The translations under genes were made by a program, and so were the position numbers. A DNA stretch of 64,000 nucleotides, from assembly GCA_038316995.1 (NCBI GenBank), contig JBBQAZ010000002.1, positions 19 through 64,018 of the forward strand, written 5' to 3'. Source of the stretch: Candidatus Saccharimonadales bacterium. Lineage in GTDB: Bacteria; Patescibacteriota; Saccharimonadia; Saccharimonadales; JAXHNE01. Position 1 is the stretch's first letter; each line of letters begins with the position of its first letter. A model generated the notes under the pieces. The model worked only from the letters and a program-made list of their open reading frames with translations, made no database searches and was not told the DNA's origin. This document shows, in pieces, positions 22,568-54,133 of the stretch.

Positions 22568-25246
22568 ATGTCAAGGTGGTATGAACTTAGTCCTGCGGCA
22601 GTACTCAAAAAGCAAAATGTAACAGCAGAATCCGGTCTTTCTAACACAGAAGCAACTAATCGCTTAAAACAATATGGAAATAATGAGCTCCACGGGGCTA
22701 AAAAGCTAAATCCTTTTAAATTATTCATAAGTCAATTTAATGACGTGTTAGTGATTGTTCTTATAATAGCGGCGGTAGTTTCTTTTGCTGTTTCCTTTGC
22801 AGAAGAAGGTGGTAGTCAGAAAGAATCATTACTTATTATTGCAATTGTAATCGCAATTGCACTCGTCGGATTCTTTAATGAATTCAAAGCAGAAAAAACA
22901 ATCGAAGCCCTAAAGCAGTTAGTTGGGTTTAAAGCCAGAGTTCGCCGTGGAGGCGAGACCATGGAAATAGAAGCGATAGATGTGGTACCAGGAGACATAG
23001 TGCTTTTAGAAGCTGGGCAGAAAATCCCAGCAGACGTACGCATATTAGATGCAAGCGAGCTCAAGGCAAATGAAGCTTCGTTAACTGGTGAATCGTTGCC
23101 TGTTAGCAAAAACGCTGCGGTATATAAAGGTGATCTACCACTTGGCGATCAAAAATCAATGCTGTTTGCCGGGACCTTTCTTACAAACGGTACTGGAATC
23201 GGAGTTGTGGTAGCAACGGGTCAATCAACAGAAATTGGCAAGATTGCACAGTTAGTAAACGACGTCGAGGTAGAGGCCACACCAATGCAACAAAAACTTG
23301 ATGACTTAGGTAAGAAACTCGGCTACGTAATTGCGGCTATTTGTTTGGCTGTGTTCTTTATCATCTTCTTTTTTGTCAAAGAAGAAGGACAATCAACGAT
23401 ACATCATGTAATATTTGCATTTACGGCTGCGGTAGCTTTGGCTGTTGCGGCCATTCCGGAAGGTTTGGCATTTGTGGTTCGTATTAGTTTAGCGCTTGGA
23501 GCACGGCGCATGGCTGGTAAGAACGCACTTGTGCGCAAGCTTTCTGCAGTAGAGGCGCTTGGGTCAACCGACATTATTTGTTCAGATAAAACCGGCACAC
23601 TAACCAAAGGTGAAATGACTGTACGAAATATCTGGGTAAACGAAACAACCGTAGAAGTAAGCGGTGCGGGATACGAAACAGAAGGCGATTTCAATAAGAA
23701 ACCTAAATCATTAGAACAATTACTTCTTGTAGGCGCTCTTTGTAATAATTCTAGCCTTCATAAAGGCGGGGTTATTGGAGATCCAACAGAAGGTGCACTT
23801 ATTGTATCGGCTGCAAAGCTAGGGCTTACATCGGCGTCACTTTCTAAAAAATGGAAAAGAATAAAAGAGATTCCATTTAGCTCCGAGCGTAAAATGATGA
23901 GCAGCATACATAAATCTGGCAGTACGTATTTAGTAGCAACAAAGGGTGCAAAAGAATCAGTTTTAGCAAAATGTACTAGTTACGTCGGTAAAGATGGCAA
24001 ATCTCACAAAATGACGGAAGCCATGAAGAAAACAATTGCAGCCCAAAATATTTCTTATGCGTCAGATGCTCTCCGTGTTTTGGCCTTTGCCTATAAAGAG
24101 GGCACGTCAGAGCCGAAAGGTAATTCTGTAGAATCTGGACTAACATTTGTAGGCTTGCAGGCTATGATGGACCCACCTCGTAAAGAAGTTATAGAGGTTA
24201 TTCATCGTGTCCAGTCAGAAGCAGGTATGCGTGTAGTTATGATTACCGGTGATTATGTAGAAACCGCCAAGGCAATCGCAACAGAAATTGGGCTAAAAGG
24301 CGCAGCTATTTCTGGTCCAGAGCTCGATAAAATGACTCAAAAACAGTTTGAAGACCAAGTAGAGGACATTAGTGTTTACGCCCGCGTAAACCCAGAACAC
24401 AAGATTAGAATTGTCCAGGCACTTAAAAAGCGTGGGCACCAGGTTGCGATGACGGGCGACGGCGTGAACGACGCACCAGCTATTAAAGCCGCCGACATCG
24501 GTATTGCCATGGGTATTACAGGAACAGACGTTGCCAAAGAAGCAGCCGACCTTATTCTGTTAGACGACCAGTTCTTGACTATCGTAAATGCCATAGAAGA
24601 AGGACGGGGCATTTTCGATAACGTCCGCAAGTTTGTTAACTTTCTCATCAGCTGTAACATTGCAGAGGTTATTGCCGTGGTGCTTGGTATCTTGCTGTTC
24701 AATGACCTTATTCTTACCGCCGCGCAGCTATTGTTTATTAACATCGTGACAGATGGCTTACCGGCAGTAGCTTTGGGTTCCGATCCTTCACAGGATAATA
24801 TTTTGAGTTCTAAGCCTCAGCGTTTCCAAGAAGCAATTTTGACCAAGCGGGTGTGGGCAGAAATCATAATCTTTGGTTCGCTCATGAGCATACTTCTGGT
24901 TGGTCAGTTCTGGTACAACCGTGGCAATGAAAGCCACTTTGCGGCCGTATCGGCAGCTTTTGCCACTATGGTAGTTTACGAGCTCGTTAGGCTTATAGAC
25001 ATCCGTACAGACTACAAGATCAAGTGGCTATCTAACCCGTGGCTTACAGTAGCGCTTGTTTCATCATTTGCACTACAAATATTAGTCTTGTACTTTACTC
25101 CATTAGCACGTTACTTTGACGTTGGTCCACTTGCGGCTCACGATTGGCTTATTATGCTAGGCGGCTCGCTCTTCCTCATTACATTCATGAAACTTCTAAA
25201 TCCAGTTCTAGACAGGATCATTAGCCCAGAACACTCCACAGCTTAG
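22568..25246 (+). CDS. P2-type cation-transporting P-type ATPase (Ca2+/cation pump-like)
   Basis: TGES, PEGLA, DKTGTLT and TGDGVNDAPAIK motifs; 892 aa with 10-TM architecture. Confidence 0.85.
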   Translation: MSRWYELSPAAVLKKQNVTAESGLSNTEATNRLKQYGNNELHGAKKLNPFKLFISQFNDVLVIVLIIAAVVSFAVSFAEEGGSQKESLLIIAIVIAIALVGFFNEFKAEKTIEALKQLVGFKARVRRGGETMEIEAIDVVPGDIVLLEAGQKIPADVRILDASELKANEASLTGESLPVSKNAAVYKGDLPLGDQKSMLFAGTFLTNGTGIGVVVATGQSTEIGKIAQLVNDVEVEATPMQQKLDDLGKKLGYVIAAICLAVFFIIFFFVKEEGQSTIHHVIFAFTAAVALAVAAIPEGLAFVVRISLALGARRMAGKNALVRKLSAVEALGSTDIICSDKTGTLTKGEMTVRNIWVNETTVEVSGAGYETEGDFNKKPKSLEQLLLVGALCNNSSLHKGGVIGDPTEGALIVSAAKLGLTSASLSKKWKRIKEIPFSSERKMMSSIHKSGSTYLVATKGAKESVLAKCTSYVGKDGKSHKMTEAMKKTIAAQNISYASDALRVLAFAYKEGTSEPKGNSVESGLTFVGLQAMMDPPRKEVIEVIHRVQSEAGMRVVMITGDYVETAKAIATEIGLKGAAISGPELDKMTQKQFEDQVEDISVYARVNPEHKIRIVQALKKRGHQVAMTGDGVNDAPAIKAADIGIAMGITGTDVAKEAADLILLDDQFLTIVNAIEEGRGIFDNVRKFVNFLISCNIAEVIAVVLGILLFNDLILTAAQLLFINIVTDGLPAVALGSDPSQDNILSSKPQRFQEAILTKRVWAEIIIFGSLMSILLVGQFWYNRGNESHFAAVSAAFATMVVYELVRLIDIRTDYKIKWLSNPWLTVALVSSFALQILVLYFTPLARYFDVGPLAAHDWLIMLGGSLFLITFMKLLNPVLDRIISPEHSTA

Positions 25247-30184: not shown

Positions 30185-30275
30185 TCTATAATTGACTACG
30201 GAGTGTTAACAACAATTGCGGGATACAGGGGCAATACAGCTCTCGTATCCCGTATTTATTAAAAGGAGGAATACA

Positions 30276-30719
30276 ATGAGTAAAAGTACAATTACAACCA
30301 TAATAGTTGCAGCAGTAGTGCTGCTTGGTGGAATTACGATCTTCGCGCTTTCGGGTTCTAGTGACGATAAAAATTCAAAGGATGACCACTCATCATCTAT
30401 GGGTGCTGATACCGAATCAATCATAACTACTAAATCAGATGAAAATGCAGAAGCACAACAGACGAATACAGTGGCAATTGAAGATTTTAGTTACCAGCCA
30501 CAAAAAATTCAAATTAAAAAAGGTACTACTGTAACCTGGACAAATAAAGACGAAGCCCGTCATGATATAACGCCCGACAGTCCAAGTGATGACTTTAAAG
30601 CAAGTGAACTGTTAAAGCAGGGCGAAAGTTATAGCTTTACCTTTGATAAGGTTGGGACATATACATATTTCTGCTCACCACATCCATATATGAAGGGTAC
30701 TGTTGAGGTTATAGAGTAA
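30276..30719 (+). CDS. type-1 (blue) copper cupredoxin, membrane-anchored
   Basis: AGGAGG SD precedes the ATG at 30276. Cu ligand pattern H(ARHD)...YFCSPHPYMKG (Cys-His-Met). Confidence 0.75.
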   Translation: MSKSTITTIIVAAVVLLGGITIFALSGSSDDKNSKDDHSSSMGADTESIITTKSDENAEAQQTNTVAIEDFSYQPQKIQIKKGTTVTWTNKDEARHDITPDSPSDDFKASELLKQGESYSFTFDKVGTYTYFCSPHPYMKGTVEVIE

Positions 30720-36966: not shown

Positions 36967-37049
36967 ATGGATAGTATACAAACAAATTAGGAATCGACAT
37001 TATCGTCGTACAAAAGTGAAATTTAATTTAAATTAAATTTAGATGTGCG

Positions 37050-37619
37050 TTATTTTTTGTCTTCAGAACCTTTAATTGCAGACTCGATAACGTCTCGGGG
37101 GAGTGCTGCAGATGCTAGAAGCGCATCCTTGGCAGTATTAACTGCATCGCCACCGACTGAGGTTGCAGCTTCCATGACACCGCCAACCGCAGACTGTGCT
37201 GCTTCAGCTGTATCTTCTCCAACATCACCAGCTGCCTTAATTGCTCCAGAAACGGCCGCAACTGCCGCTGCACCAATGTCTCCACCGGTTTCTGCGGTAC
37301 CTTTTACAAGACCTTGAGCAGCACCAAATACAGAGCCCATGACGTCGCCACCTACAGATGAAACACCTTTGATGACGCCGCTCATTGTGCCAGTGACAGT
37401 TTCTGTCAAAGATGCCCCAACATCACCAGCAGCTTTTGCAGAGCCACTCGCCACAGAAGCTACTGCGTCTACAGTCGAACTTGCAACTTCGCCTGTTCCA
37501 CTTATGACGTTAACTACTTGGTCTTTAACTGTTGTCGTCACCGATCCGACGATATCGCCGGTGCCTTTTATTGCAGCTGATACTGCGTTCGTTGCTTCGT
37601 TAATAATTTTATCAATCAT
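37050..37619 (-). CDS. Gly/Ala/Val/Ser/Thr-rich repeat protein (LEA-like, probably disordered or amphipathic)
   Basis: AGGAG SD lies 6 nt before the ATG at 37619. Iterated GxGD(V/I)(G/A)xS and KGxxxxGGD motifs. The + strand ORFs over it are compositional shadows. Confidence 0.6.
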   Translation of the reverse strand: MIDKIINEATNAVSAAIKGTGDIVGSVTTTVKDQVVNVISGTGEVASSTVDAVASVASGSAKAAGDVGASLTETVTGTMSGVIKGVSSVGGDVMGSVFGAAQGLVKGTAETGGDIGAAAVAAVSGAIKAAGDVGEDTAEAAQSAVGGVMEAATSVGGDAVNTAKDALLASAALPRDVIESAIKGSEDKK

Positions 37620-37750
37620 AAAGTCTCCTTTGTTTAATTACCATCTATAGTTTACCAGCTGAAAAGCTGCGTGGCCAATACAACAGGTACAGGACTCTCT
37701 ATCTCAGCCGATTTAAAGATCAACTAATATACTCATGTAAGTATTCTTTA

Positions 37751-38463: not shown

Positions 38464-38538
38464 CGCGGGGTAGAGCAGCGGCAGCTCGTGTGGCTCATAA
38501 CCACAAGGTCGGAGGTTCGAGTCCTCCCCCCGCTACCA
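38464..38538 (+). tRNA. initiator-type tRNA-Met (CAT)
   Basis: CGCGGGG...CCCCGCT acceptor with a C1xU72 mismatch, A11:U24 in the D-stem, CTCATAA loop, GGAGG-TTCGAGT-CCTCC T-arm, encoded CCA. Only two of the three canonical G:C pairs are in the anticodon stem. Confidence 0.85.
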
Positions 38539-38697
38539 AGGTTTGGTTATCTCATTCGTGAGGTAAGCAAACCTTTTTTAGTTGTGTTAGACTCGAACCG
38601 AAAGGCGAAAACAGCCAGTGGCTGTTTGAGTTTTCCTTGCTTGGCCGAGCGAGATGCTTTAGCTCTCGAGCGAGCAAATTTAGGCGAGTCCTCCCCC
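38532..38697 (+). repeat. tRNA-linked 166-bp unit, copy A
   Basis: Hand alignment to 41445-41610 gives 6 substitutions and no indels. Starts in the last 7 nt of tRNA-fMet and ends in gagtcctccccc, the 5' half of the tRNA T-loop/acceptor segment. Confidence 0.9.
38540..38579 (+). terminator. hairpin + T-run directly after tRNA-fMet (part of repeat unit A)
   Basis: GGTTTG-gttatctcattcgtgaggtaag-CAAACC followed by tttttt. Confidence 0.6.
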
Positions 38698-38757
38698 GGT
38701 TTATAAAAATATGAGACAAAATTGAAGAAGCTCAGCTTCTATCATATCCAAATATTA

Positions 38758-39369
38758 CTAAACTTTGTCGAATATTTTGAACAATGGCTGGAAATCTTCA
38801 GATTTTACAAATATCGTTATTTCATTAAAAGTTGAAACGAGCTCCACAATAGTGATTCCGCTTGCTGCAATGTCCAGAAGAATTGTTGCATACACTGCAT
38901 GAATTTCTGAACTATTTATTGGTAAACCAAGACAAAGAGCAGATAGCTTAGTGATTTTTCTTAGCTGGGACTTTTTACTCAGTAATTTTTCATCCTCCGA
39001 ACTAATAATTATGGTATGTTCGTTCGTTCCTGTAGTTTGTACGAAATATCTAACTGAATCTGCTACAGTTTCTGCGCCTGTGTGTCCTCTAATATAGTTA
39101 AGCGCACTGAGATTATGATAGGAGCCATTGATTTGAATATTCTGAGGTTTTAGAAAAGCACCGACTACGTCTTTGGAAGATTTAGTAGAATATCTTCTTA
39201 GCGCCATCGAAATACTCTCAAGATTAACTTTTTGGCCTAACTGAGTTTCGATATTACTCCGAAAGAATTTAGCTACTGCTCTAATATTTAACATATCAGA
39301 GGTTAATAAGACTGCAATAAGTGGGTTTTTATCAAGTTCTACTCTTGTGAGTTCGGATATAGTTTTCAT
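38758..39369 (-). CDS. hypothetical protein with ACT-like C-terminal region
   Basis: ORF 38758-39459; ATG at 39369 (MKTISELT) preferred. The C-terminal GITIVELVSTFNEITIFVKSEDF resembles an ACT fold. Weak call. Confidence 0.4.
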   Translation of the reverse strand: MKTISELTRVELDKNPLIAVLLTSDMLNIRAVAKFFRSNIETQLGQKVNLESISMALRRYSTKSSKDVVGAFLKPQNIQINGSYHNLSALNYIRGHTGAETVADSVRYFVQTTGTNEHTIIISSEDEKLLSKKSQLRKITKLSALCLGLPINSSEIHAVYATILLDIAASGITIVELVSTFNEITIFVKSEDFQPLFKIFDKV

Positions 39370-39481
39370 GTTATAAATATAACACATTCTGTAATATTTG
39401 CAATAAAACAACAAAAATTTTATAAATATTTTTAAATGTCTTATTGTTTCTTTGTGCAAATAATTAATAGGAGTGAAAGAA

Positions 39482-39955
39482 ATGAAATATAAAAGAGCTT
39501 TTCCGACTTGTAGAACTTCAAGAAGCCAAGAAGTACCAGATACATATAATGAATTGTTTTGTGAAGGGGAAATGCCTACACCTGATATGACAGATTTACT
39601 AAGGAGTCAGATCGAATCACACAGTGGAGACCCTGCTTCGGACGCATACTATGGCCCTATAGCAACGCACTCGATATACCTAGACACTCAAGAAATACCT
39701 TTACTTGGATGGCAGGAAGTAGTTCTAAGAAGGGTGAGGTTGAGGCAGCTTGGCTGGAACGCAATCAGTGGGGTGCTAGTAGATTCGTGGAGTAGACCAA
39801 TGGATTCACTTATGCGATTTTTAGACAGAAACCAGGAATCAAAAATCAGAGCAAACGAATTATTTCTTGGGCCTTATTGTTCCAGCGACGATATTCTCAA
39901 ACCTGGAATTATGGTTTATGACCCTATACTACATAAGCCAAATTCCACTCATTAA
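39482..39955 (+). CDS. hypothetical protein (157 aa)
   Basis: AGGAG SD lies 8 nt before the ATG at 39482. No motif recognised. Confidence 0.45.
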   Translation: MKYKRAFPTCRTSRSQEVPDTYNELFCEGEMPTPDMTDLLRSQIESHSGDPASDAYYGPIATHSIYLDTQEIPLLGWQEVVLRRVRLRQLGWNAISGVLVDSWSRPMDSLMRFLDRNQESKIRANELFLGPYCSSDDILKPGIMVYDPILHKPNSTH

Positions 39956-39991
39956 AATAGTGAATAAATAATCTAGAGAAAAGGAAATAAT

Positions 39992-40237
39992 ATGAGAAAT
40001 GAATACTATGAAGGCGTAGTGGTGTCTTGCGTGATGAACGTGAGCATGAACTGCATACCAGAAGGCACAGTAACACGCGAACAATATATGAGATATGGCG
40101 GGATGTTACTTAGAGGCAGAGCAGATGCACAGCCTATAGGTATTGTTGAGCCAGCAGAGGAACAATTAAAAGAGTTAATTGTGGATCAGGCACACGAGCT
40201 ATACGAAGGTGGTCGCCAAGATAGATGTTTAATTTAG
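39992..40237 (+). CDS. hypothetical protein (81 aa)
   Basis: AAGGAAA SD-like box precedes the ATG. No motif recognised. Confidence 0.4.
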   Translation: MRNEYYEGVVVSCVMNVSMNCIPEGTVTREQYMRYGGMLLRGRADAQPIGIVEPAEEQLKELIVDQAHELYEGGRQDRCLI

Positions 40238-40343
40238 TTGAGACAAGCTTGATTAATTTAACGAAATTAATCAGTCTGGCCACCACGCATATGACTGCAA
40301 AAAACAGAGGTTATTATCCTCTGTTTTTTGGTATAGTGACTAC

Positions 40344-40988
40344 ATGGATTCATTAATTCCATTTTACCAAGCTTTTCCAACACCTGGACATCCTAAAGGC
40401 GTACATTGCGTAGAAACTGCACTAAAGATGATTCTAGGCTATTTTGAGCCTGACCGGGAATATTCCATAAATGAGCTTGAAAAAATCACAGCGAAAAAAC
40501 CTGAAAAGGGTAGCTGGAGCTTTGATTGGTCAATATGGTTTGTTGCGCAAGGATATAATATAAAGCATTATTCTACTTTTGACTTTGAAGCATTCAAAAG
40601 AGACGGTGTTGAATATATACGACGTGATTACGGTGATGAAATAGCGGACTGGCAACTTACGAATTCTGACATAGGGCGCGCTAGGTCATTAGTAGATGAG
40701 TACTTAGAAAAAGTGGAAATTGTAAATCGCAAACCAACAATTGAAGACATACGATCAGAAATAAGTCAGAAGTCGGTTGTTAAGCCGATGGTGAATAGTA
40801 ACGTTTTAAATAATATGAAGGGCTACGAAGGACATTCAGTAGTAGTTCTAAATATAGACAATGAGTATATTTGGTTTCATGATCCTGGATTACCAGCATT
40901 TAAAAACAGAAAAATTAATCACGAAAAATTCCAAAGTGCCATGAATAGCTTCGGTGGTGAAATGGATGTAATAAGAAGGCCACGATGA
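40344..40988 (+). CDS. papain-fold cysteine peptidase, C39-like
   Basis: Candidate triad order Cys (GVHCVETALKMIL), His (YEGHSVVVL), Asp (WFHDPG), as in the Peptidase_C39-like family. Confidence 0.5.
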   Translation: MDSLIPFYQAFPTPGHPKGVHCVETALKMILGYFEPDREYSINELEKITAKKPEKGSWSFDWSIWFVAQGYNIKHYSTFDFEAFKRDGVEYIRRDYGDEIADWQLTNSDIGRARSLVDEYLEKVEIVNRKPTIEDIRSEISQKSVVKPMVNSNVLNNMKGYEGHSVVVLNIDNEYIWFHDPGLPAFKNRKINHEKFQSAMNSFGGEMDVIRRPR

Positions 40989-41389
40989 AAGATATTGAAT
41001 TTCTGAAAATGGCTGTTAATGAAGGTAACAAGGTAGAACAACCATATAATTTTGGTGCTGTTGTAGTTAAAGACGGAAAAATAATTGCATCCGAACACAA
41101 CCACGTCACAGAACAGCATAACCCCTTTCTTCATTCTGAAGTGTGTGCAATCATCGCAGCTTGCAAAGTATTAAAAACCCACCATATTGATGGGGCCGTT
41201 CTTTATTCAAGCCACGAACCCTGTACGATGTGTTTAAGTTGTGCTGCATGGGCGCATATAGACAGAATAGTGTTTGCAATTTCAGCAAAAGAACAAGATT
41301 TTAATTATGAATTCAAGAATCCTGATACTATGAATCTTTCAAAAAATTTAGTTAAGCCAATTAAAATAGAACACTTAATTTTGAGTTAA
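40985..41389 (+). CDS. CDA-fold zinc deaminase (TadA/GuaD/dCMP deaminase-like)
   Basis: HSEVCAI and PCTMCLSCAAWA zinc-binding motifs. Start overlaps the peptidase stop (ATGA). Confidence 0.75.
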   Translation: MKDIEFLKMAVNEGNKVEQPYNFGAVVVKDGKIIASEHNHVTEQHNPFLHSEVCAIIAACKVLKTHHIDGAVLYSSHEPCTMCLSCAAWAHIDRIVFAISAKEQDFNYEFKNPDTMNLSKNLVKPIKIEHLILS

Positions 41390-41444
41390 TAACTTCCAGC
41401 GACTTAACTCCTCAAGGATAATGTTCTAAGACGAAGCAACCTGG

Positions 41445-41610
41445 GCTACCAAGGTTTGGTTATCTCATTCGTGAGGTAAGCAAACCTTTTTTAGTTGTGT
41501 TGGACTCGAACCGATAGGCGAAAACAGCCGGGGGCTGTTTGAGTTTTCCTTGCTTGGCTGAGCGAGATGCTTTAGCTCTCGAGCGAACAAATTTAGGCGA
41601 GTCCTCCCCC
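41445..41610 (+). repeat. tRNA-linked 166-bp unit, copy B
   Basis: Direct repeat of 38532-38697. Begins with gctaccaagg, the 3' half of the tRNA end, preceded by unrelated aacctgg. Confidence 0.9.
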
Positions 41611-41620
41611 CGCTACCAAG
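41598..41620 (+). other. displaced copy of the tRNA-fMet 3' end (T-loop to CCA+ag)
   Basis: cgagtcctccccccgctaccaag is identical to 38518-38540. No 5' tRNA half precedes it. Confidence 0.85.
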
Positions 41621-41626
41621 AAAAGA

Positions 41627-41651
41627 GTCCATCCATGCGATGGGCTTTTTT
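41627..41651 (+). terminator. Rho-independent terminator (probable native tRNA-fMet terminator)
   Basis: GTCCATC-catgc-GATGGGC followed by tttttt. Confidence 0.65.
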
Positions 41652-41750
41652 CTTTTGTTTCGTAGATACGACGAGAACCAGATGCGTGATCGAAAGCGCT
41701 AACTTACTATTTCAATTCATCAAAATATAATCATTAGCTTTAGTCTTATT

Positions 41751-42818
41751 TCAAGCAGCCATCAAAACACCTTGAATTTGGCTGGTTGCAAGATCGCCAA
41801 GTGACCTCGGCAAATTAACCCCCCAACAGTGGTCTCCATTTTCAACTTTTACCGCCGTATGGTTTGTTTCGATGACATATTTTTGTAATTCTATCGGCGA
41901 ACAGATCGGGTCATCATCACCAAATGCAAACTCAATTTGGACAGATGGTACTTTTCGCTCTAGTGCCTCTACTCTATCTAGTAACTTTCCTCGAGTAAAA
42001 GAGAGCCACAAACTAAGGTTTATTGGCCTCCAGATTACGTCTTCGATGGTTTTCAGTTTGCTCGATAATTTCATAGCTAATGAGCCAATGTTCTCAGGAG
42101 TAAGTATAGAAAGCCCACTATTACGGATGTGCTCATCCATGTGTCTGCCTGAATTGGCAAATTTCTTAAGAATGCCAGGCATTGTGTCTTCGATTACTCC
42201 TGGCGAGTTTGAGACCAATCCTGCGATTACTTCACGATCTTTTGAAAGACTTAAAAGTATGTCAGGTGTCAAAAAAGCCGCAAGCGAATAACCAGCCGAT
42301 ATTACTCGTTCACTTTCTGGAAGCTCGTCTACGACAACTCTGGCGATTTTGTCGGTAATGGGGCTCAGTGAGCCACGGGCAAGTTTGATTTGTTCAAGAG
42401 GGCATAACGAGACATTAGACATCCTGCTGGCGCTCGCCGTCTGCAGGACCTGGGGTGTAACCCCATCGTTTCCTACTACGCCCTGAGCCCTCATTGATTC
42501 GAACATAAATTTTCCACGGAAACAGTTAATCTCTGATAAATCAGTTGCAAAAGGGTTTGCCATTACAACTACCGTTTCCGATGGCTCTTCGCCGTGAACA
42601 CAGAAGTCCAATCCGTGTCTAGAATGGGTAACTTCCGGTAGATCATCAAAAATTGCTTGTTTGCTACCAAACTTTGCAATGCCATTATAGATGTTGACGA
42701 GTTCTTGTACCGATTCTGGGGGTGGACGGTTTAGAAACTCGGTGATTTGACCAGGTTCGTTAGAAAAATTGGCAACAGATGACCCAGGATGTGATTCGGG
42801 ATTCATTATTGCAGTCAT
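41751..42818 (-). CDS. alpha/beta-hydrolase-like protein, hypothetical
   Basis: Nucleophile-elbow-like SAGYSLAA, later GDDDP and GDHCWG in Ser-Asp-His order. Weak call. Confidence 0.4.
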   Translation of the reverse strand: MTAIMNPESHPGSSVANFSNEPGQITEFLNRPPPESVQELVNIYNGIAKFGSKQAIFDDLPEVTHSRHGLDFCVHGEEPSETVVVMANPFATDLSEINCFRGKFMFESMRAQGVVGNDGVTPQVLQTASASRMSNVSLCPLEQIKLARGSLSPITDKIARVVVDELPESERVISAGYSLAAFLTPDILLSLSKDREVIAGLVSNSPGVIEDTMPGILKKFANSGRHMDEHIRNSGLSILTPENIGSLAMKLSSKLKTIEDVIWRPINLSLWLSFTRGKLLDRVEALERKVPSVQIEFAFGDDDPICSPIELQKYVIETNHTAVKVENGDHCWGVNLPRSLGDLATSQIQGVLMAA

Positions 42819-43093: not shown

Positions 43094-45196
43094 TTACAAC
43101 TCTACCCGCCGCAGTAATTGGGCGTTTGCAGCGACAATGATCGTAGAAAGTGACATAACAGCTGCTCCAATTGCTGGGGAAAGCACAAATCCGGCAAATG
43201 ATAGTGCTCCTGCTGCGAGCGGTACGGCAAACAAGTTGTAGCCTGCCGCCCAGAACAAGTTTTGTACCATTTTAGCGTAAGTTTTCTTAGATAACTTTAC
43301 GATTTTACTTACGCCGCGTGGATCGCTACTTGCGAGCACGATTCCTGCAGACTCAATTGCAACGTCCGTACCAGCGCCAATTGCAATACCAATATCTGCT
43401 TGGGTGAGTGCCGGTGCGTCATTTACACCGTCACCAACCATGGCAACTTTAGACCCGTCGGATTGTAATTTTTTCACAACCTCAGACTTATCGCCAGGAA
43501 GTACTTCTGCATAATACTCGTCTAGTCCGAGCTTGGATGCAACCCATTTTGCAACACCTTCAGAATCGCCAGTCAGCATAGCAACTCGCTTACCGGTTTT
43601 CTGTAGTTCCAAAACGGCTTTTTTGGATTCTGGGCGAATAACATCGGCAATCATAAATGCACCAATTGTCTTTTTTTCTTCAATCAGGTAGACGATAGTT
43701 TGGCCATTTTTATGTGCTTGATCACTTGCTACTTTATATTTTTGGATTAGCTCTACGCCCTGTTCTTTGAGCATTTGCGGTCCACCAATAAAATATGTCT
43801 TTCCGTTTACTTTTGCTTTTGCACCACGACCTTCGAGTGCGCTGAAACCTTCTGCTTTATAAGCTTTGACTTTACTGTCTTTAGCATTCTGTACGATTGC
43901 TTTGGCGATTGGGTGTTCGGATTCGGTTTCTATAGCGGCAGAGATAGACAATAACTGCTGTTTGTCATCAGTAACGATATCTACCACTCCTTGTTCGCCT
44001 TTGGTAAGTGTCCCGGTTTTATCAAAAAGGACAACATCAATATTGCGAGCAGTTTCAAGCGCGGAACGCTCACGCACAAGTAGCCCTGCGCTTGCGGCTT
44101 TGCTGGTCGAGATAGCTGTTACTAATGGTATCGCCAAACCCAGTGCATGAGGACAGGCAATGATAAGCACCGCTACTACTCGTTCGAGTACAAAGTTTGT
44201 GTCGGCAGAACCGACCATGGACCAAACAATTGCTGTTATGGCTGCCGCAATGAGAGCGTAATAAAACAAATACTTTGAGGCGGTATCTGCAAGAAGCTCT
44301 GTTCTAGATTTGGTGGCTTGCGCATCAGAAACCAATTTCATGATTCCAGACAATGCTGTGTCGTCTCCAACTTTTGTGACTTTAATAGTTAGTGAGCCAT
44401 TCGTGTTTATTGTTCCCGCAATTACCTCGTCTCCAACTTCTTTATTAACAGCTTTCGATTCACCGGTTAGCAATGATTCATCTACCTTTGACCCCCCCTT
44501 AACAACCTCACCATCTGTTGGAATTGATGATCCTGGGCGGACCAAAACCTTGTCACCAACTTTTAATTCGCTAACTGATACTGTTTTACTACCGCTTTTG
44601 GTTAGTAGCTCCGCTTCATCCGGAAGTAGCTTTGCTAGTTCTTTTAACGCTCCTTGGGCGTTAGATATAGAAGCCATTTCCAGCCAGTGACCAAGCAGCA
44701 TAATTGTGATAAGGGTTGCCAGTTCCCACCAGAAACTCATTCCATTAACAATATTTAGGGTTATCAATGAGCTATAAACAAAAGCAACGGAAATTGCCAT
44801 AGATATAAGCGTCATCATGCCAGGTGTTTTGTTTGCTAGTTCGGCCCGTCCACTACGGAGGAATACCATGCCTCCATAAAAGAAAATTGATATTCCGAAG
44901 AACGCAGATATATAAGTACTTCCAGTAAATGTCGGTGCGCTGAAACTGAGTAGTGATTGAATTGTTTCGGAAAAGTAAAGAACTGGCAATGTTAATGCTA
45001 GCGATACCCAGAATTTTGTACGGAAAATATTGGGACTATGGCCGGCATGCTTGTCATGGTTGTGAGATTTATGGTTTGCATTAATTTTTTTCCTCTCTAA
45101 AGCCATGTGACAGTGCGGGCAGTCGCCGCGTTCATCCTTTATTACATCTGGATGCATGGGGCAGGTGTATTTTATCTCTGTTTCAGTACGCTTCAT
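43094..45196 (-). CDS. copB: copper-translocating P1B-type ATPase (CPH motif, CopB-like)
   Basis: N-terminal YTCPMHPDV...CPHCHMAL metal-binding domain, TGES, TM6 IIACPHALGLA, DKTGTLT, GDGVNDAPAL. Confidence 0.8.
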   Translation of the reverse strand: MKRTETEIKYTCPMHPDVIKDERGDCPHCHMALERKKINANHKSHNHDKHAGHSPNIFRTKFWVSLALTLPVLYFSETIQSLLSFSAPTFTGSTYISAFFGISIFFYGGMVFLRSGRAELANKTPGMMTLISMAISVAFVYSSLITLNIVNGMSFWWELATLITIMLLGHWLEMASISNAQGALKELAKLLPDEAELLTKSGSKTVSVSELKVGDKVLVRPGSSIPTDGEVVKGGSKVDESLLTGESKAVNKEVGDEVIAGTINTNGSLTIKVTKVGDDTALSGIMKLVSDAQATKSRTELLADTASKYLFYYALIAAAITAIVWSMVGSADTNFVLERVVAVLIIACPHALGLAIPLVTAISTSKAASAGLLVRERSALETARNIDVVLFDKTGTLTKGEQGVVDIVTDDKQQLLSISAAIETESEHPIAKAIVQNAKDSKVKAYKAEGFSALEGRGAKAKVNGKTYFIGGPQMLKEQGVELIQKYKVASDQAHKNGQTIVYLIEEKKTIGAFMIADVIRPESKKAVLELQKTGKRVAMLTGDSEGVAKWVASKLGLDEYYAEVLPGDKSEVVKKLQSDGSKVAMVGDGVNDAPALTQADIGIAIGAGTDVAIESAGIVLASSDPRGVSKIVKLSKKTYAKMVQNLFWAAGYNLFAVPLAAGALSFAGFVLSPAIGAAVMSLSTIIVAANAQLLRRVEL

Positions 45197-45261
45197 TTCA
45201 GCCTCCTTAAATACTGTTAAGTCGCATAGTTAAATATTTCAAATCGTTGGAAAGGCACATT

Positions 45262-45699
45262 TTAATGAACTTCGTGTTGCATTGGCGTAATTTCATGGTC
45301 TATATACCCCCAGTCTTTTTGCCATTGCTTCATATTGGCAATTTCTTTTGTTTGAGCAGAAATTATCTCTACTCCGAGTTGTTTAACTTCATCATGACTA
45401 GCACGGGCCGGAATAAGTTCAGCCATATCTACTGCACCCTCGTGGTGCGCAACCATCATCTCTATGAATGCTTTATCAAAAACATCACCCGATAGGGGCT
45501 CGAGTACCTTGTTCATATCAGCCATAGACATGCTGCTATGATCAGTTTCAGCTAATTGCGGAATTTCTTGGTAATTAATACCCATCATTCGCATCATTCC
45601 AGTGTTGTTACTGTTAACTGCTTGACCCGCAGCAAAGCCCGCAACTACAACTCCCAGCAGTAGACCGATAATTCCAAACATTGAATTTTCTTTGTTCAT
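45262..45699 (-). CDS. DUF305 domain protein (copper-associated)
   Basis: Signal anchor plus FDKAFIEMMVAHHEGAVDMA and EIISAQTKEIANMKQW, typical DUF305 helices. Confidence 0.75.
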   Translation of the reverse strand: MNKENSMFGIIGLLLGVVVAGFAAGQAVNSNNTGMMRMMGINYQEIPQLAETDHSSMSMADMNKVLEPLSGDVFDKAFIEMMVAHHEGAVDMAELIPARASHDEVKQLGVEIISAQTKEIANMKQWQKDWGYIDHEITPMQHEVH

Positions 45700-51653: not shown

Positions 51654-51681
51654 AAAAAAGCTCGGGACGCCGAGCTTTTTT
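51654..51681. terminator. bidirectional Rho-independent terminator
   Basis: aaaaaAGCTCGG-gacg-CCGAGCTttttt. On the minus strand it follows the displaced tRNA 3' fragment. Confidence 0.75.
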
Positions 51682-51684
51682 ATT

Positions 51685-51853
51685 TGGTAGCAGGACCGAG
51701 ATTTGAACTCGGTCTAAATATGCTCTCTCTCCGGCAGCTGCCGGATCGTTCGGCCAAGCATGGAAAACTCAAACAGCCAGTGGCTGTTCTCGCCTACGGC
51801 CCCGAGTTTAAGTCAATACCAATGAAAAACCCCACAATAGTGGGGCCTTACAT
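51685..51853 (-). repeat. tRNA-linked unit, diverged copy C
   Basis: On the minus strand: terminator hairpin, a 49-nt core (51794-51746) with 4 differences from 38604-38652, a variable hairpin, gagcatatttag, then a copy of the 3' end of the adjacent tRNA (51685-51712). Confidence 0.8.
51825..51847 (-). terminator. hairpin + T-run directly after the tRNA (part of unit C)
   Basis: Minus strand reads CCCCAC-tatt-GTGGGG followed by ttttt. Confidence 0.6.
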
Positions 51854-51930
51854 TGGTAGCAGGACCGAGATTTGAACTCGGGACCTCAGGCTTATGAGTC
51901 CTGCGCTCTAACCAACTGAGCTATCCTGCC
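51854..51930 (-). tRNA. tRNA with CAT anticodon (elongator Met or lysidine-modified Ile2)
   Basis: Reverse complement is GGCAGGA-TA-GCTC-AGTTGGTTA-GAGC-...CTCATAA...-CCGAG-TTCAAAT-CTCGG-TCCTGCT-A-CCA. C11:G24 (elongator type); A31/G39 mismatch closes the loop. Confidence 0.85.
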
Positions 51931-52736: not shown

Positions 52737-53245
52737 GCCCGCCATAGCAGAAACTCGGTGTTTTGTATTTTTTCGGCATTGCTGAACGCATGATCAGTTA
52801 AGACACTGCGAAGCGCGCGTCCGAATGAACCATGCCCGACAACAAGCACTGTATTCCCAGGGAGTGAATCTATCCATCTTACTGATAAGTGCGCGCGTTC
52901 AATCAGCGTGTTCAAGGCTTCAATATCTGAAAAACCATCAAGATCCAAGTCGGGTGCGTAAGGGTGGCCTTCGGCTGACCCAAAATCCCGTTCTAGTAGA
53001 AGCCGACTGGTATGAATTTTATCAACTGGATAGTTAATTTCCTTCGCGATAATCTGGGCGGTTTCAAGCGCCCGAGACAGAGGAGAGGTGACAATTAGAT
53101 CAATTCCTAGCTTTATTGCTTTTTTACCAGCTATTTTAGCTTGCTCACGGCCTTCTTTTACTAGAGGAGTTTCAGTTATTCCAGCTATATGGCCAGTCAT
53201 GTTCATTTTGCTGAGTCCGTGTCTGCAAAAATATATCTTCTTCAT
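52733..53245 (-). CDS. histidine phosphatase family protein (phosphoglycerate mutase-like)
   Basis: IYFCRHGLSKMN RHG motif, SPLSRALETA and a later VVGHG. Confidence 0.75.
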   Translation of the reverse strand: MKKIYFCRHGLSKMNMTGHIAGITETPLVKEGREQAKIAGKKAIKLGIDLIVTSPLSRALETAQIIAKEINYPVDKIHTSRLLLERDFGSAEGHPYAPDLDLDGFSDIEALNTLIERAHLSVRWIDSLPGNTVLVVGHGSFGRALRSVLTDHAFSNAEKIQNTEFLLWRA

Positions 53246-53263
53246 AGGTTACTATTATACAAG

Positions 53264-54133
53264 ATGGAAGTATCTGTTAAGCCAGGAAAATATGTCATTG
53301 CCGTGTCAGGAGGCATAGATTCTATGGTTTTGCTTAATCTACTGAGCAGAACCAAAGAATTAGAGTTAATTGTGGCTCATTTTGACCATGGAATTCGCGA
53401 GGAATCGGCCGTCGACGCAAAATTTGTAGAAATGAGCGCCGAATATTTAGGTTTGGAATTTGAAATGTCCCGTGAAGAGTTAGGTAAGAATGCAAGTGAA
53501 GACCTAGCAAGGAAAAGACGGTATGAATTCCTGCAAAATACCCAAAAAAAGTATGGAGCAACAGCAATTATTACTGCGCATCATCAAGATGATGCAATTG
53601 AGACGATGATTATAAATTTGCTACGCGGAACCAATCGTAAAGGATTGAGCGCGCTTAAAAGCACAAATGCTATACGACGACCATTAATTGGATATACCAA
53701 AAGAGAAATTGAACAATATGCGCTGGAAAACAATGTTAGTTGGCGGGAAGACAGTACTAATCAATCAGATGCGTACCTAAGAAACTTTGTGAGAAACAAT
53801 ATTGTTAGTCGATTCAGTGAGCCCACGAGAGTTTATTGGATAAAGACTTACTTAAAAATGCTGAACCTAAATGAACATATAGACCAAGAAATTGCAGATA
53901 TTATGCAAAATGTTGATGTAATAAACCGTACATGGCTAATTCAGTTTCCTAATAACATTAGCTGTGAACTGATTGCAGCACAATTAAGAAAATATGACGT
54001 TTTACTATCTCAAAAACAGGTTCAGGATACTGTTATATTCTGCAAAGTTGCGGTTGTGGGTTCAGAAAAAGTACTGAGTAAAACAGTGAAGTTACTTGCT
54101 AATAAAACATCTGTTAGCGTGAAGCAGCAATAA
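53264..54133 (+). CDS. tilS: tRNA(Ile)-lysidine synthase
   Basis: PP-loop YVIAVSGGIDSMVLL and the HFDHGIR, TAHHQDD motifs. Lies directly upstream of ftsH, as is common. Confidence 0.8.
   Translation: MEVSVKPGKYVIAVSGGIDSMVLLNLLSRTKELELIVAHFDHGIREESAVDAKFVEMSAEYLGLEFEMSREELGKNASEDLARKRRYEFLQNTQKKYGATAIITAHHQDDAIETMIINLLRGTNRKGLSALKSTNAIRRPLIGYTKREIEQYALENNVSWREDSTNQSDAYLRNFVRNNIVSRFSEPTRVYWIKTYLKMLNLNEHIDQEIADIMQNVDVINRTWLIQFPNNISCELIAAQLRKYDVLLSQKQVQDTVIFCKVAVVGSEKVLSKTVKLLANKTSVSVKQQ

Follow-up and report, generated by a model that had tools for sequence, protein, structure and literature searches.

The window, by which we mean the whole 64,000-nt stretch of DNA that was analyzed, carries a tRNA-Met(CAT) gene followed by two copies of a 166-nt repeat, with a block of cargo genes between the copies and a displaced duplicate of the tRNA 3′ end behind the second (Table 1). 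The first acceptor pair of this tRNA is non-canonical by Rfam (C1 x U72), and the tRNA appears initiator-like because of this mismatch at position 1:72.

Table 1. Features of the tRNA-fMet locus and of the second T-loop unit in the window.
Feature	Position	Strand	Remarks
tRNA-Met(CAT)	38464..38538	+	ARAGORN; Rfam tRNA, 61.4 bits; encoded CCA
t1	38518..38540	+	T-loop position 56 to CCA plus AG; 23-mer duplicated downstream
Unit copy A	38532..38697	+	166-nt repeat; repeat search, MAFFT
term1, copy A	38540..38579	+	hairpin GGTTTG..CTCA-TTCG-TGAG..CAAACC, then T6
Cargo	38698..41444		2747 nt; inside the middle tRNA-derived 23-mer, one C lost at the join
ORF1, 203 aa	38758..39369	-	helical N-terminal half, C-terminal ACT-like domain
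ORF2, 160 aa	39473..39955	+	conserved divergent pair with ORF1
ORF3, 81 aa	39992..40237	+	strong downstream hairpin with A/T runs, 40298-40330
ORF4, 214 aa	40344..40988	+	Peptidase_C39-like; Pfam PF03412, PF13529
ORF5, 134 aa	40985..41389	+	cytidine/deoxycytidylate-type zinc deaminase; Pfam PF00383, E 1.2e-21; PHROG dCMP deaminase
Unit copy B	41445..41610	+	second 166-nt repeat
Displaced tRNA 3′ end	41598..41620	+	full length, T-loop to CCA plus AG; 23/23 match
term2	41621..41657	+	hairpin and T-run; terminator-like call at 41618-41654, 16 pairs
tRNA(CAT) with solo unit	51654..51930	-	tRNA at 51930-51854; second family member in the window

Copy A starts with GCTACCA, the last 7 nt of the tRNA. 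Next comes term1, which serves as the tRNA-Met terminator, forms the opening part of the repeat, and is exactly repeated in copy B. It is followed by IR-L (GACTCGAACC, 38590-38599), the P2 hairpin (38609-38627, terminator-like by hairpin scoring), a core 25-mer (38620-38644), the P3 hairpin with a linker (38645-38684), and a truncated tail, t′ (CGAGTCCTCCCCC, 38685-38697). Copy B consists of GCTACCAAGG, term1 (41453-41492), IR-L (41503-41512), P2 (41522-41540) and P3 (41558-41597), and its last 13 nt are also the opening 13 nt of the full-length displaced 23-mer. The repeat search aligned the two copies over 166 nt at 96% identity and without gaps. MAFFT and direct comparison place exactly six substitutions between them, at 38589, 38602, 38617, 38619, 38646 and 38674, bearing out the original prediction of a 166-bp repeat with six changes and no indels. 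All helices are spared by these differences.

The 23-mer CGAGTCCTCCCCCCGCTACCAAG is present exactly in the tRNA gene and at the distal end of the array, and its first 13 nt recur as t′; matches like these arose in 0/100 shuffles. The exact T-loop-to-CCA copy that had been predicted is thus confirmed, as are the hairpin and T-run said to follow it. The distal 23-mer and its terminator behave like the displaced native end of the tRNA gene, and term2 is presumably the native tRNA terminator; its weak ctRNA-like match in Rfam reflects terminator shape. At the cargo boundaries, copy A ends CGAGTCCTCCCCC|GGTTTATAAA and copy B begins AACCTGG|GCTACCAAGG, letters that agree with the earlier description of a split tRNA-derived segment. 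The two halves, when rejoined, give the 23-mer minus one C, and the claim that the cargo lies within a tRNA-derived site between two tandem units is supported.

The cargo has a GC content of 36.4%, compared with 40.7% for the window. ORF1 and ORF2 have no family match in Pfam or PHROG. The AF2 model of ORF1 (pLDDT 69) has aspartate-kinase regulatory (ACT) subunits as its top Foldseek matches, and on this model ORF1 is predicted to be an ACT-domain protein and no recombinase. Homologues of ORF1 sit in non-tRNA contexts, and ORF2 is 24-26% identical (E 1.7e-7 and 5.6e-6) to a 116-aa gene divergent from the ORF1 homologues at two other loci (L052 and L055). ORF4 homologues that are 60-75% identical occur in other Saccharimonadales, in unrelated contexts. 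All five genes of the cargo are thus of an ordinary Saccharimonadales kind and are present elsewhere away from tRNAs.

A family of T-loop units behind tRNA and tmRNA genes

The 166-nt block is an independent and widespread module, which we call the T-loop unit, and is not private to the 2.7-kb cassette. The original prediction had turned in part on whether the repeat recurs elsewhere, and it does: about 45 sampled loci in Saccharimonadales (TM7) carry it, after about 20 tRNA species and tmRNA, among them a solo copy behind another tRNA(CAT) of the window. The 25-mer core matched at 13 loci in 12 GTDB Saccharimonadales species and at 29 metagenome loci, with the 25 nt identical in 12 species representatives and 29 metagenome contigs; nhmmer found 17 unit copies in the first 14 sources. 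In the other unit of the window, the tRNA is followed by a terminator (51847-51824), IR-L (GACTTAAACTCGGGG, 51814-51800), P2 (51789-51771), P3 (51753-51713), an exact 29-nt copy of its own tRNA 3′ end (51712-51684) and a terminator (51681-51654). Homologues of the flanks of the tRNA-fMet locus reach no more than 52% identity and show no synteny.

Most unit copies lie directly 3′ of a tRNA or tmRNA and its terminator. That terminator is followed by IR-L (an inverted copy of the cognate T-loop, ...GAACC), P2, a covarying P3 and a copy of the tRNA from position 56 to CCA. The module measures about 140-145 nt and its 3′ end is flush against the duplicate, which in most cases matches the cognate tRNA exactly. 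The junction is T55|C56 in most members, and identity begins 21-22 nt from the 3′ end in 17/26. The tRNA-Leu(TAG) genes of two loci (L007 and L009) differ by one tail base, and the displaced copy at each locus has the base of the gene it belongs to, while P3 has diverged. With one exception, units have the orientation of the tRNA upstream of them. Several unrelated cores (types 2-4) have the same architecture.

Departures from this layout also occur. Some units are mismatched to the adjoining tRNA or have no IR-L (L020, L025, L030, L033, L034, L040 and L041), and some are truncated, chimeric or orphaned (the second copy of L010, L020, L024, L030, and L033 compared with L040, where recombination within the conserved core is visible). 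The genes upstream of L030 are housekeeping genes and not an island. At L032 the unit is reversed and lies inside a partial tRNA copy, and in tRNA-His units the core sits between direct copies of tRNA positions 44-54 and 56-76.

Units are usually solo, and the spacing from tRNA to displaced copy is 159-192 nt unless kilobases of unrelated genes are enclosed. Tandem units without cargo are found at L010 and L013. Kilobase-scale cargo is enclosed at three independent loci: the window, L016 (1383 nt between the tRNA and a unit-bearing displaced tail) and L035/L044 (1584 nt between a homologous tRNA-fMet and a unit-bearing displaced tail). The earlier picture of a 2.7-kb cassette bracketed by repeats is right about the bracketing, but the repeats are not the ends of a cassette; they are a module that usually occurs alone. 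Since the units are independent, the cargo genes are ordinary and one C was lost at the join, nothing indicates that the 2.7-kb block is in itself a discrete mobile cassette.

As had been predicted, no recombinase was found in the cargo or the window. A Pfam scan of the 63 non-overlapping window ORFs of at least 110 codons, 60 of which were covered, gave no integrase, transposase, serine recombinase, reverse transcriptase, TnpB or IS110-type protein, and the one match in a tyrosine-recombinase motif scan of the window was spurious. Profile searches of the cargo ORFs, together with the ORF1 model, revealed no cryptic recombinase, and the cargoes of L016 and L044 carry none. Across 45 family sources, the motif scan detected no recombinase except an Xer-like gene near tRNA-Arg(CCT). 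TnpB, IscB, IS110, Cas and reverse-transcriptase genes were found neither in the window nor beside any unit examined. An autonomous relative combining a unit with a recombinase was not found in about 300 kb of flanks, in IMG/VR, or in phage and plasmid collections. The T-loop unit had no match in Rfam (E up to 10), and the family, not found in the phage, plasmid and viral collections or the literature searched, is undescribed so far.

Folding and covariation of the units

A helix, P1, can form between IR-L and the beginning of the duplicated tail, and double changes are seen at P1 pairs. IR-L follows even unusual T-loops, as in L037 (TTAGAGT loop, GGGACTCTAACCC) and the tmRNA units L005 and L021, and its complementarity to the tail is greater for cognate than for non-cognate tails (Mann-Whitney p=0.002). 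Every one of the 33 distinct P3 sequences folds into a hairpin, and their mean pairwise identity is 60%; the share of paired cells is 73.6%, compared with 26-51% for slid partners. The P3 covariation score is 0.264 compared with 0.140 in shuffles (0/500 reach 0.264), with changes on both sides in 8/11 pairs. P2 covaries across unit types (CAGCC/GGCTG, GTGCC/GGCAC, TTGCC/GGCAA), with ten G.T wobbles and no A.C. Comparison of the sequences has shown that the predicted pairing of P2 and P3 is kept by compensatory changes. The G.T wobbles point to the tRNA-sense strand, which would thus be the strand that folds.

Origin of the array and its cargo

The reading we favor, with moderate confidence, is that the locus consists of tandem non-autonomous mini-elements that target the T-loop, with cargo captured in the middle pseudo-attachment site and the recombination enzyme supplied in trans. 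The array would have accreted at the 3′ end of the initiator-type tRNA-Met from T-loop units, themselves miniature integrative elements of the kind that targets tRNA and tmRNA genes. Integrase-type islands have as their signature T-loop or tmRNA targeting that leaves a regenerated gene together with a displaced fragment (Islander, PMC4383910). The attachment site may work as a folded single strand, along the lines of integron attC sites or CTX-phage/Xer recombination: P1 would rebuild the T-arm duplex of the target, and strands would be exchanged at the P1 edge, 55|56. The enzyme could be a recombinase encoded elsewhere in the genome or a host Xer-type recombinase. With two homology arms available, one in the intact tRNA and one in the displaced tail, transfer between strains by natural transformation could also need RecA alone. 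The cargo would have been a later arrival, recombined imprecisely into the spare tRNA fragment that separates the units, a non-essential safe harbor since the real tRNA stays intact. Its capture was probably not site-specific, as one C was lost and the position of cargo relative to the unit differs among the window, L016 and L044. The family, which has no recombinase of its own, appears to provide a landing pad where foreign genes settle.

Several observations count against mini-elements. Classical integrases have specificity for one tRNA, but near-identical cores serve about 20 tRNAs here, and the re-tailoring of the tail and IR-L is not explained. Compensatory hairpins are, to our knowledge, no feature of ordinary double-stranded attP arms. 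The units at L032 and behind tRNA-His look, from their sequence layout, more like insertion into a spare T-loop than like attP. Finally, no autonomous relative was found, and units that are mismatched or have no IR-L exist.

The compensatory changes that keep the helices, and wobbles restricted to the tRNA-sense strand, would also suit putative structured non-coding RNA genes transcribed by read-through from the tRNA, an explanation we consider unlikely. Here the P1/P2/P3 scaffold would present a 21-nt tRNA-identical 3′ tail, which could guide an RNA-guided recombinase or nuclease to tRNA genes (compare TnpB omega RNA and IS110 bridge RNA) or could instead be a tRNA 3′-end mimic or spare part, with the cargo a secondary insertion. 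The co-orientation of unit and upstream tRNA fits, as does a tail that stays identical to its tRNA while P3 diverges. So does the order of scaffold, target-matching sequence of about 21 nt, and terminator. To the left of position 56 IR-L is complementary to the top strand, and to the right of it the tail is complementary to the bottom strand, an arrangement that may recall two-sided guide loops. However, the units contain no sigma-70-like promoter and a strong terminator separates them from the tRNA, no Rfam family matches, and none of the guide-using proteins sought (TnpB, IscB, IS110, Cas, reverse transcriptase) is encoded in the window or beside the examined units. Unrelated cores on one architecture would be odd for a protein-bound scaffold.

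We likewise doubt that the units are passive relics that lack a present function and are left over, in decayed form, from old integrations or duplications at the 3′ ends of tRNAs. The window pair could then stem from unequal crossing-over between repeated tRNA tails, the cargo from homology-facilitated illegitimate recombination after natural transformation, and the similarity among units from gene conversion and quasi-palindrome correction. The imprecise join of the cargo, its ordinary lineage genes, the lack of a recombinase among the genes searched, the truncated, chimeric and orphan units and the L033/L040 recombination are all in keeping with this. But relics should have ragged lengths and decayed tails, whereas the spacing is confined, the junction is mostly 55|56 and the tails are mostly perfect. 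Identity of the 25-nt core across so many species and contigs, compensatory substitutions in P2 and P3, and six copy A/B differences that avoid every stem also speak against decay.

An integron-like array lacking its integrase (CALIN), with units as folded attC-type sites and the cargo as a cassette, is very improbable. The units recall such arrays in having imperfect inverted repeats that flank a structured spacer of about 100 nt, in folding on one strand and in bracketing DNA without a recombinase, but their inverted repeats copy the tRNA T-loop (CTYGAACC / CRAGTCC, not RYYYAAC / GTTRRRY), the right-hand boundary has no GTT, and the five cargo ORFs lie on both strands with their own terminators. 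Most units are solo behind tRNAs and enclose no cassette, and IntI was not found by motif scan or Pfam of the window ORFs; these motif and cassette-structure tests largely refute the idea. It is scarcely credible that the locus is an assembly artifact in which the 166-nt repeat bridged two population variants or two loci: the repeats exceed typical k-mers, the window apparently comes from a metagenome-assembled contig and its relatives are all MAGs or metagenome contigs, but the copies differ at six positions and were therefore not collapsed or copied, both cargo junctions fall within the split 23-mer and not within the repeat, and the same architecture with other cargo stands at a homologous tRNA in independent assemblies from different samples (L035, L044).

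Comparison with known systems

Trans-mobilized mini-elements would have several relatives in part. [quoted passage not shown] T-loop units differ in that no unit, cargo or neighborhood examined has an integrase, the "island" is usually only about 140 nt, one core serves about 20 tRNAs, and the element contains hairpins with compensatory changes as well as the target T-loop in inverted form. CIMEs and the tandem accretion of ICEs and IMEs (PMC5704250), as well as Dehalococcoides ssrA arrays (PMC3146451), share att-flanked DNA without recombination genes, reuse of one attachment site and cargo between att copies. In contrast, each CIME stems from an identifiable related ICE or IME, which has its own integrase and also mobilizes the CIME, and CIMEs use one fixed site; no such partner was found here, and T-loop units are also far smaller and re-tailored to many tRNAs. 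Dehalococcoides islands encode their own recombinase.

Integron attC sites and the attP(+) of CTX phage, used by XerCD, resemble T-loop units in architecture: a one-strand secondary-structure site with imperfect inverted repeats on either side of a spacer of about 100 nt, where a host or trans enzyme acts on carried DNA that has no recombinase, as T-loop units might by analogy. T-loop units have no attC motifs or dif-like sequence, however, and their target is the tRNA T-loop. IS200/IS605 PATEs and TnpB omega RNA are similarly short and ORF-less, with one-strand subterminal hairpins, no terminal inverted repeats of their own, and a right end abutting about 20 nt of target-derived sequence; GAACC stands left of most T-loop unit copies. 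Unlike PATEs, T-loop units have no TnpA or TnpB found with them, lack the left flank motif in orphan copies, regenerate rather than split the target gene, and place several unrelated cores on one architecture. Finally, in mycobacteriophage Ms6 (PMC1762012) retargeting was engineered, requires an integrase and reaches only tRNA-Ala genes, but it shows that T-loop-directed integration can be redirected to other tRNA T-loops, there through a change in the attP core that makes it match them.

The split tRNA tail and its two units

The first acceptor pair of the tRNA-Met(CAT) gene at this locus is a C1 x U72 mismatch. Mismatches of this type are the usual hallmark of bacterial initiator tRNAs, and because of it we infer that the gene is initiator-type. 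The tRNA is intact at one end of the locus, and an exact displaced 3′ fragment lies at the other. The original prediction described two 166-bp repeats with 6 substitutions and no indels. A repeat search finds the pair (ungapped, 96% identity), and MAFFT with direct comparison gives the same six differences. The copied tRNA 3′ end (the 23-mer CGAGTCCTCCCCCCGCTACCAAG, T-loop to CCA plus AG) is likewise identical at both sites, and the hairpin and T-run behind the distal copy are there as described. The cargo, 2747 nt between copies A and B, does lie inside a split tRNA-derived site, and its joined flanks rebuild the 23-mer one C short. Less secure is the idea that the repeats bracket one cassette: they do flank the cargo, but the block belongs to a widespread family.

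We write t for the tRNA tail from position 56 to CCA, t′ for its 13-nt start, and term1 and term2 for the terminators. The order is then t, term1, core, t′, cargo, the last 9 nt of the tRNA (GCTACCAAG) plus G, term1, core, t and term2. The right half-site of the cargo thus leads into term1, not term2. Repeated tRNA tails flank units and cargo, with no recombination or transfer genes inside. The GC content of the cargo is 36.4%, that of the window 40.7%.

The simplest history for the window, judged from sequence, would have three steps: (i) a solo unit stood at tRNA-fMet, like that at 51654-51930; (ii) its 167-nt period was duplicated, as in L010, a related locus with tandem units and no cargo; (iii) 2.7 kb entered the middle tail copy, which is dispensable. 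Alternatively, a circle with the cargo and one unit could have integrated by recombination in the 166-nt homology, and the product would be identical.

Features of the window and of related loci (L numbers; from species-representative genomes and metagenome contigs)
Locus	Feature	Position (strand)	Detail
Window	Elongator-type tRNA-Met	18852-18927 (-)	No unit, no displaced tail; small ORF directly after
Window	Metal-handling genes	43094-45699 (-), 22556-25243 (+), 30210-30716 (+)	
Window	Ala/Gly/Val-rich repetitive ORF	37050-37619 (-)	189 aa; weak Mce4_CUP1 and phasin matches
Window	Long antisense ORFs	37045-37317 (+), 37339-37650 (+)	
Window	tRNA-Met(CAT)	38464-38538 (+)	ARAGORN, Rfam; complete, 61.4 bits
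Window	23-mer CGAGTCCTCCCCCCGCTACCAAG	38518-38540, 41598-41620	Exact
Window	Direct repeat, copies A and B	38532-38697, 41445-41610	166 nt
Window	A/B substitutions	38589, 38602, 38617, 38619, 38646, 38674	
Window	13-nt start of CGAGTCCTCCCCCCGCTACCAAG	38685-38697	
Window	Cargo	38698-41444	ORF1-ORF5
Window	Hairpin between ORF3 and ORF4	40298-40330	Near-perfect, 16 bp; A-run and T-run flanks
Window	Hairpin and T-run after distal 23-mer	41618-41654	16 pairs
Window	Right-flank protein	41751-42818	Protein itself not on record; homologues at most 52% identical, not syntenic; no close relative found
Window	Third tRNA(CAT), with solo unit	51930-51854 (-); unit locus 51654-51930 (-)	G1.U72 pair
Window	PP-loop ATP_bind_3 gene, TilS (lysidine synthase) type	53165-54130 (+)	1.2 kb from third tRNA(CAT)
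L010	XerC/D-like gene	1537-2493	
L023	XerC/D-like gene	10425-11375	
L042	XerC/D-like gene	2112-3062	
L012	RNase P RNA, class A	5541-6045	505 nt
L013	RNase P RNA, class A	2365-2716	352 nt
L016	Structured segment GACCGGACA...TGTCCGGTTAGGACCACCA	~7100-7190 (-)	Ends in mini-helix, ACCA and own terminator; just upstream of unit
L030	Two successive displaced tails, CGAATCCTACCGTCCCAGCCA then ATCCTACCGTCTCAGCCA	8600-8700	Hairpin between
L044	Direct repeats around cargo ORF	2462-2570, 3376-3480	~105 nt

Distribution and anatomy of the units

A BLAST search of the window with the 166-nt block gave a 46-nt match (93%) downstream of a second tRNA(CAT), the third of the window when the elongator-type gene is counted. 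Here the layout is tRNA, terminator hairpin, conserved core, a different hairpin, an exact 29-nt copy of the tRNA's own 3′ end and a terminator. The two share the 25-mer GGCTGTTTGAGTTTTCCWTGCTTGG, which also marks 13 loci spread over 12 species-representative genomes, each from Candidatus Saccharimonadales/Saccharibacteria, and 29 metagenome contigs. The elongator-type tRNA-Met has no unit, so not every tRNA of this genome is occupied. The third tRNA(CAT) may be tRNA-Ile2 rather than tRNA-Met, because of its G1.U72 pair and the TilS-type gene nearby.

Most unit copies lie directly 3′ of a tRNA or tmRNA gene and its terminator, and every one ends in a tRNA or tmRNA 3′-end copy. The tRNAs concerned are Val, Pro (3 anticodons), Arg (2, with the cognate gene upstream), His, Leu (4), Asp, Tyr, Lys, Ser, Gln, Glu, Met and fMet; tmRNA is the host gene in L001/L036, L005 and L021. 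As in the window, relatives carry the displaced fragment as a direct repeat of the same tRNA. Among tRNAs of the fetched loci, a biased sample, 53 distinct ones have 300 nt or more of sequence downstream; a displaced copy follows 26 of these, and in 17 of the 26 identity starts 21-22 nt from the 3′ end (T55/C56). Where the cognate gene is upstream, the distance from tRNA tail to displaced tail is 159-192 nt, three gene-enclosing loci excepted. It rises to 252 nt at tRNA-Tyr because a second conserved module intervenes (ACGTCACAACTAATATCAACCCCGC, a hairpin, then GCGGGGTCTTGTATTG). This module lies between tRNA-Tyr and the unit in L018/L019/L027, after tRNA-His in L006 and after the displaced tail in L017. 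RNase P RNA genes occur ~2 kb downstream of the unit-bearing tRNA loci L012 and L013; their lengths indicate insertions in the L012 copy.

On the tRNA-sense strand the unit begins with the terminator hairpin of the tRNA. There follows IR-L, which ends in GAACC and is the reverse complement of the cognate T-loop, sometimes with the T-stem (in the window, GACTCGAACC against tRNA GGTTCGAGTC). Next come the P2 hairpin (AAACAGCC-NNN-GGCTGTTT, then GAGTTTTCCWTGCTTGGCC), the P3 hairpin, whose sequence is variable, and a short linker, often AGAATAACT and in the window AAATTTAGG. The tail copy t and a terminator complete the unit.

IR-L can form a helix, P1, with the 6-14 nt at the start of t, and RNAalifold recovers this helix with double-sided changes. 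The complementarity is greater for cognate than for non-cognate pairs (Mann-Whitney p=0.002). IR-L tracks even unusual targets: the TTAGAGT loop in L037 is matched by GGGACTCTAACCC, and the tmRNA units L005 and L021 carry inverted tmRNA T-arm copies of 14-16 nt. The subtypes are out of register in raw MAFFT alignments, so RNAalifold failed to detect P3 in them. In a dedicated alignment of 20 distinct sequences, 73.6% of P3 cells are paired; sliding the partner by 1-3 columns lowers this to 26-51%. The observed covariation score of 0.264 is not reached by any of 500 shuffles (0.140), and both sides change in 8 of 11 pairs. All 33 distinct P3 sequences fold as hairpins at a mean pairwise identity of only 60%. 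P2 is invariant among type 1 units, which is partly search bias; in the related type 2 core (tRNA-His L003 and L004; L013) it covaries as CAGCC/GGCTG, TTGCC/GGCAA and GTGCC/GGCAC. Wobbles are always G.T and never A.C in P2 (10 against 0); in P3 the counts are 7 against 4, and the folding strand is therefore the tRNA-sense strand. A tRNA-like fold on either strand offers no acceptor or T-arm partner, by eye or with ARAGORN. A minus-strand 55-aa ORF runs through the core; it is rejected as coding because, in translations of both copies, all six A/B differences change a residue.

Other core types keep the same architecture, in which IR-L has GAACC as its end and the tail begins close to position 56. 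A third core (..GAGTGCCACTGGCACTCTTCGGGTT/CGAGTCC..) closes the L044 array, a fourth is found at tRNA-Asp in L028 and another at tRNA-Arg(GCG) in L025. In tRNA-His units the core lies between direct copies of tRNA positions 44-54 and 56-76. Types can be combined: in L013 a type 1 unit comes after one of type 2. In L032 a type-1 core is reversed within a partial tRNA-Met copy (positions 36-76), 22 nt past the intact gene. GAACC precedes most copies; it is absent from seven units that are mismatched to the neighbouring tRNA and/or lack IR-L (L020, L025, L030, L033, L034, L040 and L041). Of these, L033 and L040 share their left context and left core half and differ from P3 onward, which indicates recombination within the conserved core. 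The orphan unit L030 is not the far end of a large island, as housekeeping genes (NusB, RNase III, S16, TrmD, SOD) lie upstream of it. The two displaced tails in L030 belong to a tRNA-Gln other than the adjacent tRNA-Gln(CTG).

Cargo genes and the search for a recombinase

Kilobase inserts between a tRNA and a unit-bearing displaced tail arose in three independent cases. In the window, 3080 nt separate the tRNA from the displaced tail. In L016, at tRNA-Leu(TAG), the insert is 1383 nt with two ORFs, and the cargo lies between the first GGTTTGAACC and the unit. In L035/L044, at a homologue of the window's initiator-type tRNA, it is 1584 nt, and the order is tRNA, terminator, type-1 unit, diverged tail, 219-aa ORF, third-type unit and tail. 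Cargo capture was probably not precise, because one C was lost in the window and cargo positions differ in L016 and L044. The repeats around the L044 cargo ORF each end in ..TTCGAATGCACTACGGC[T/A]ACCA, resembling the T-loop-to-CCA tail of another tRNA, which would make the bracketed ORF a nested islet derived from a different tRNA locus. The structured segment in L016 has no Rfam match; it may be a small RNA, or another RNA's displaced tail.

The window cargo is, on the strength of its homologues, made up of ordinary lineage genes. ORF4 is Peptidase_C39-like and ORF5 is a dCMP/cytidine-type deaminase. Homologues of ORF4 (60-75% identity) occur in other Saccharimonadales, adjoining tRNA-Gln(CTG) with no unit in L045-47 and within an operon that also carries a deaminase in L048-50. 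ORF1 homologues are 40-47% identical and keep a divergent ORF2-related partner, at loci with neither tRNA nor unit. Homologues of ORF1/ORF2 and of the C39-like gene are thus found in non-tRNA contexts. The five ORFs lie on both strands with internal terminators; the hairpin between ORF3 and ORF4 has the shape of a bidirectional terminator and would split the cargo into two transcription units.

Two other features of the window were noted. Its metal-handling genes comprise a heavy-metal P-type ATPase with a CxxC-rich N-terminal region, a DUF305 protein, a second cation P-type ATPase and a cupredoxin; a P-type ATPase of the window has 66% nucleotide identity to one near the C39-like gene in L045. 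The ORFs antisense to the 189-aa ORF are probably an artefact of repetitive composition.

The original prediction recognised no recombinase in the cargo or the window, and the profile, structure and motif searches bear it out. Pfam finds no recombinase among 60 of the 63 window ORFs, only metabolic, transport and housekeeping families, and no Pfam or PHROG recombinase family matches the cargo ORFs of the window, L016 or L035/L044. A cryptic recombinase in the window cargo is rejected: all five ORFs are negative with Pfam and PHROGs, and in Foldseek the ORF1 AF2 model (pLDDT 69) matches ACT regulatory domains of aspartate kinases, with no recombinase fold. A tyrosine-recombinase motif scan of 45 sources (L001-L044 and the window) returned only a XerC/D-like gene (HTLRHSFATDLL...LGHSNIxTTQIY), within 0.7-1.4 kb of tRNA-Arg(CCT) and its unit in L010, L023 and L042. 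Conserved synteny is the simplest explanation for this gene, because its position relative to the unit varies among the three loci.

No TnpA or TnpB was found in the window or the loci examined. A search of 57 loci, IMG/VR and phage and plasmid collections turned up no autonomous relative (ICE, IME or phage) that combines the same att site with an integrase. A phage or plasmid origin of the unit is rejected, since the core 25-mer has no match in IMG/VR and the unit no BLAST match in phage and plasmid collections; a looser core pattern gave one chance match, to a high-GC phage.

Interpretation and known systems

We read the units as miniature non-autonomous integrative modules, recombined in trans at 55/56, and give this reading about even chances. 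We favour it because one-strand compensatory helices and an inverted T-loop copy fit a folded single-strand site. The unit would act as a folded single strand at recombination, and P1 would recreate the duplex of tRNA-gene positions 56-64, ending exactly at the junction. Integron attC sites and the attP of CTX phage, used by XerCD, act as folded single strands. If the fold is the active attachment site, the small group of structure-defined single-strand sites would extend to tRNA genes, with a targeting principle that is re-programmable by sequence copying.

A structured-RNA or guide function of the unit seems unlikely to us. Its helices do covary on the tRNA-sense strand; in Rfam 15 the only matches are to tRNA, and none falls inside the unit, with E values as high as 10 allowed. 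That the unit is a functionless relic is equally doubtful. Some orphan or truncated units, too, bear Arg-type tails; the six A/B differences lengthen P1 by one pair, fall in the linker or P2 loop, or change C:G to T.G, and break no helix. The re-tailoring of IR-L and tail is explained by none of the models, the in-trans module included. A further, improbable reading is a categorically new programmable, protein-less attachment or guide module: a three-helix single-stranded (DNA or RNA) fold at which a host or trans enzyme would insert DNA at 55/56 of essentially any tRNA/tmRNA gene, the gene being regenerated. The closing helix and 3′ tail would be copied from the T-arm and acceptor strand of the target tRNA. 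If this is true, the acquisition and reshuffling of accessory genes at tRNA genes in ultra-small Saccharibacteria genomes involves no recombinase encoded by the elements themselves.

CPR bacteria, Saccharibacteria among them, have very small genomes in which few mobile elements can be recognised, and their gain of accessory genes is poorly understood. A conserved and structured ~145-nt module after about half of the sampled tRNA/tmRNA genes (a biased sample), re-tailored per tRNA and repeatedly found around foreign or shuffled genes, would be a lineage-wide gene-capture platform. In practice, units give partial tRNA matches, cause breaks in assemblies and are markers of strain-variation hotspots in TM7 genomes.

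We found no description of the unit family in the literature searched, and several known systems resemble it in part. A regenerated tRNA with a displaced 3′ fragment, a T-loop junction and tmRNA use make up the textbook signature of tyrosine-integrase islands (Islander, PMC4383910). All of these are seen in the units, but Islander-type islands have an integrase inside and none was found in units or cargo. DNA flanked by att sites without a recombinase, together with accretion, defines CIMEs (PMC5704250); the window locus is similarly att-flanked and free of recombination and transfer genes. Arrays at ssrA are described in Dehalococcoides (PMC3146451), and, in the Ms6 study, T-loop-directed integration was redirected by altering the attP core (PMC1762012).

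The attC boxes of integrons and CALINs are R″ (RYYYAAC) and R′ (GTTRRRY), whereas the units have CTYGAACC on the left and AACT/CRAGTCC on the right, with no GTT. CALIN cassettes mostly hold one promoterless, co-oriented ORF, unlike the five-ORF, two-strand window cargo with its internal terminators. The PATE/omega RNA of IS200/IS605 has subterminal hairpins at both ends on one strand, as do the units (P2 is close to the left end, P3 lies ~10 nt short of the right one, and the wobble bias points to the + strand). PATEs have a fixed 4-5 nt target immediately 5′ of the left end; in the units GAACC stands there in most copies, though not in the seven named above. MITEs have element-encoded terminal inverted repeats and a short fixed target-site duplication, whereas the inverted repeats of the units are target-derived, because they vary with the tRNA, and their direct repeat is a variable 19-60 nt. 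Compared with known islands, the units are unusual in their ~140 nt size, the lack of a recombinase in the examined loci, one core for ~20 tRNAs, the inverted T-loop copy and the one-strand compensatory helices. What would be new here is a miniature, structured form of tRNA-targeted integrative DNA that has no recombinase and serves multiple targets.
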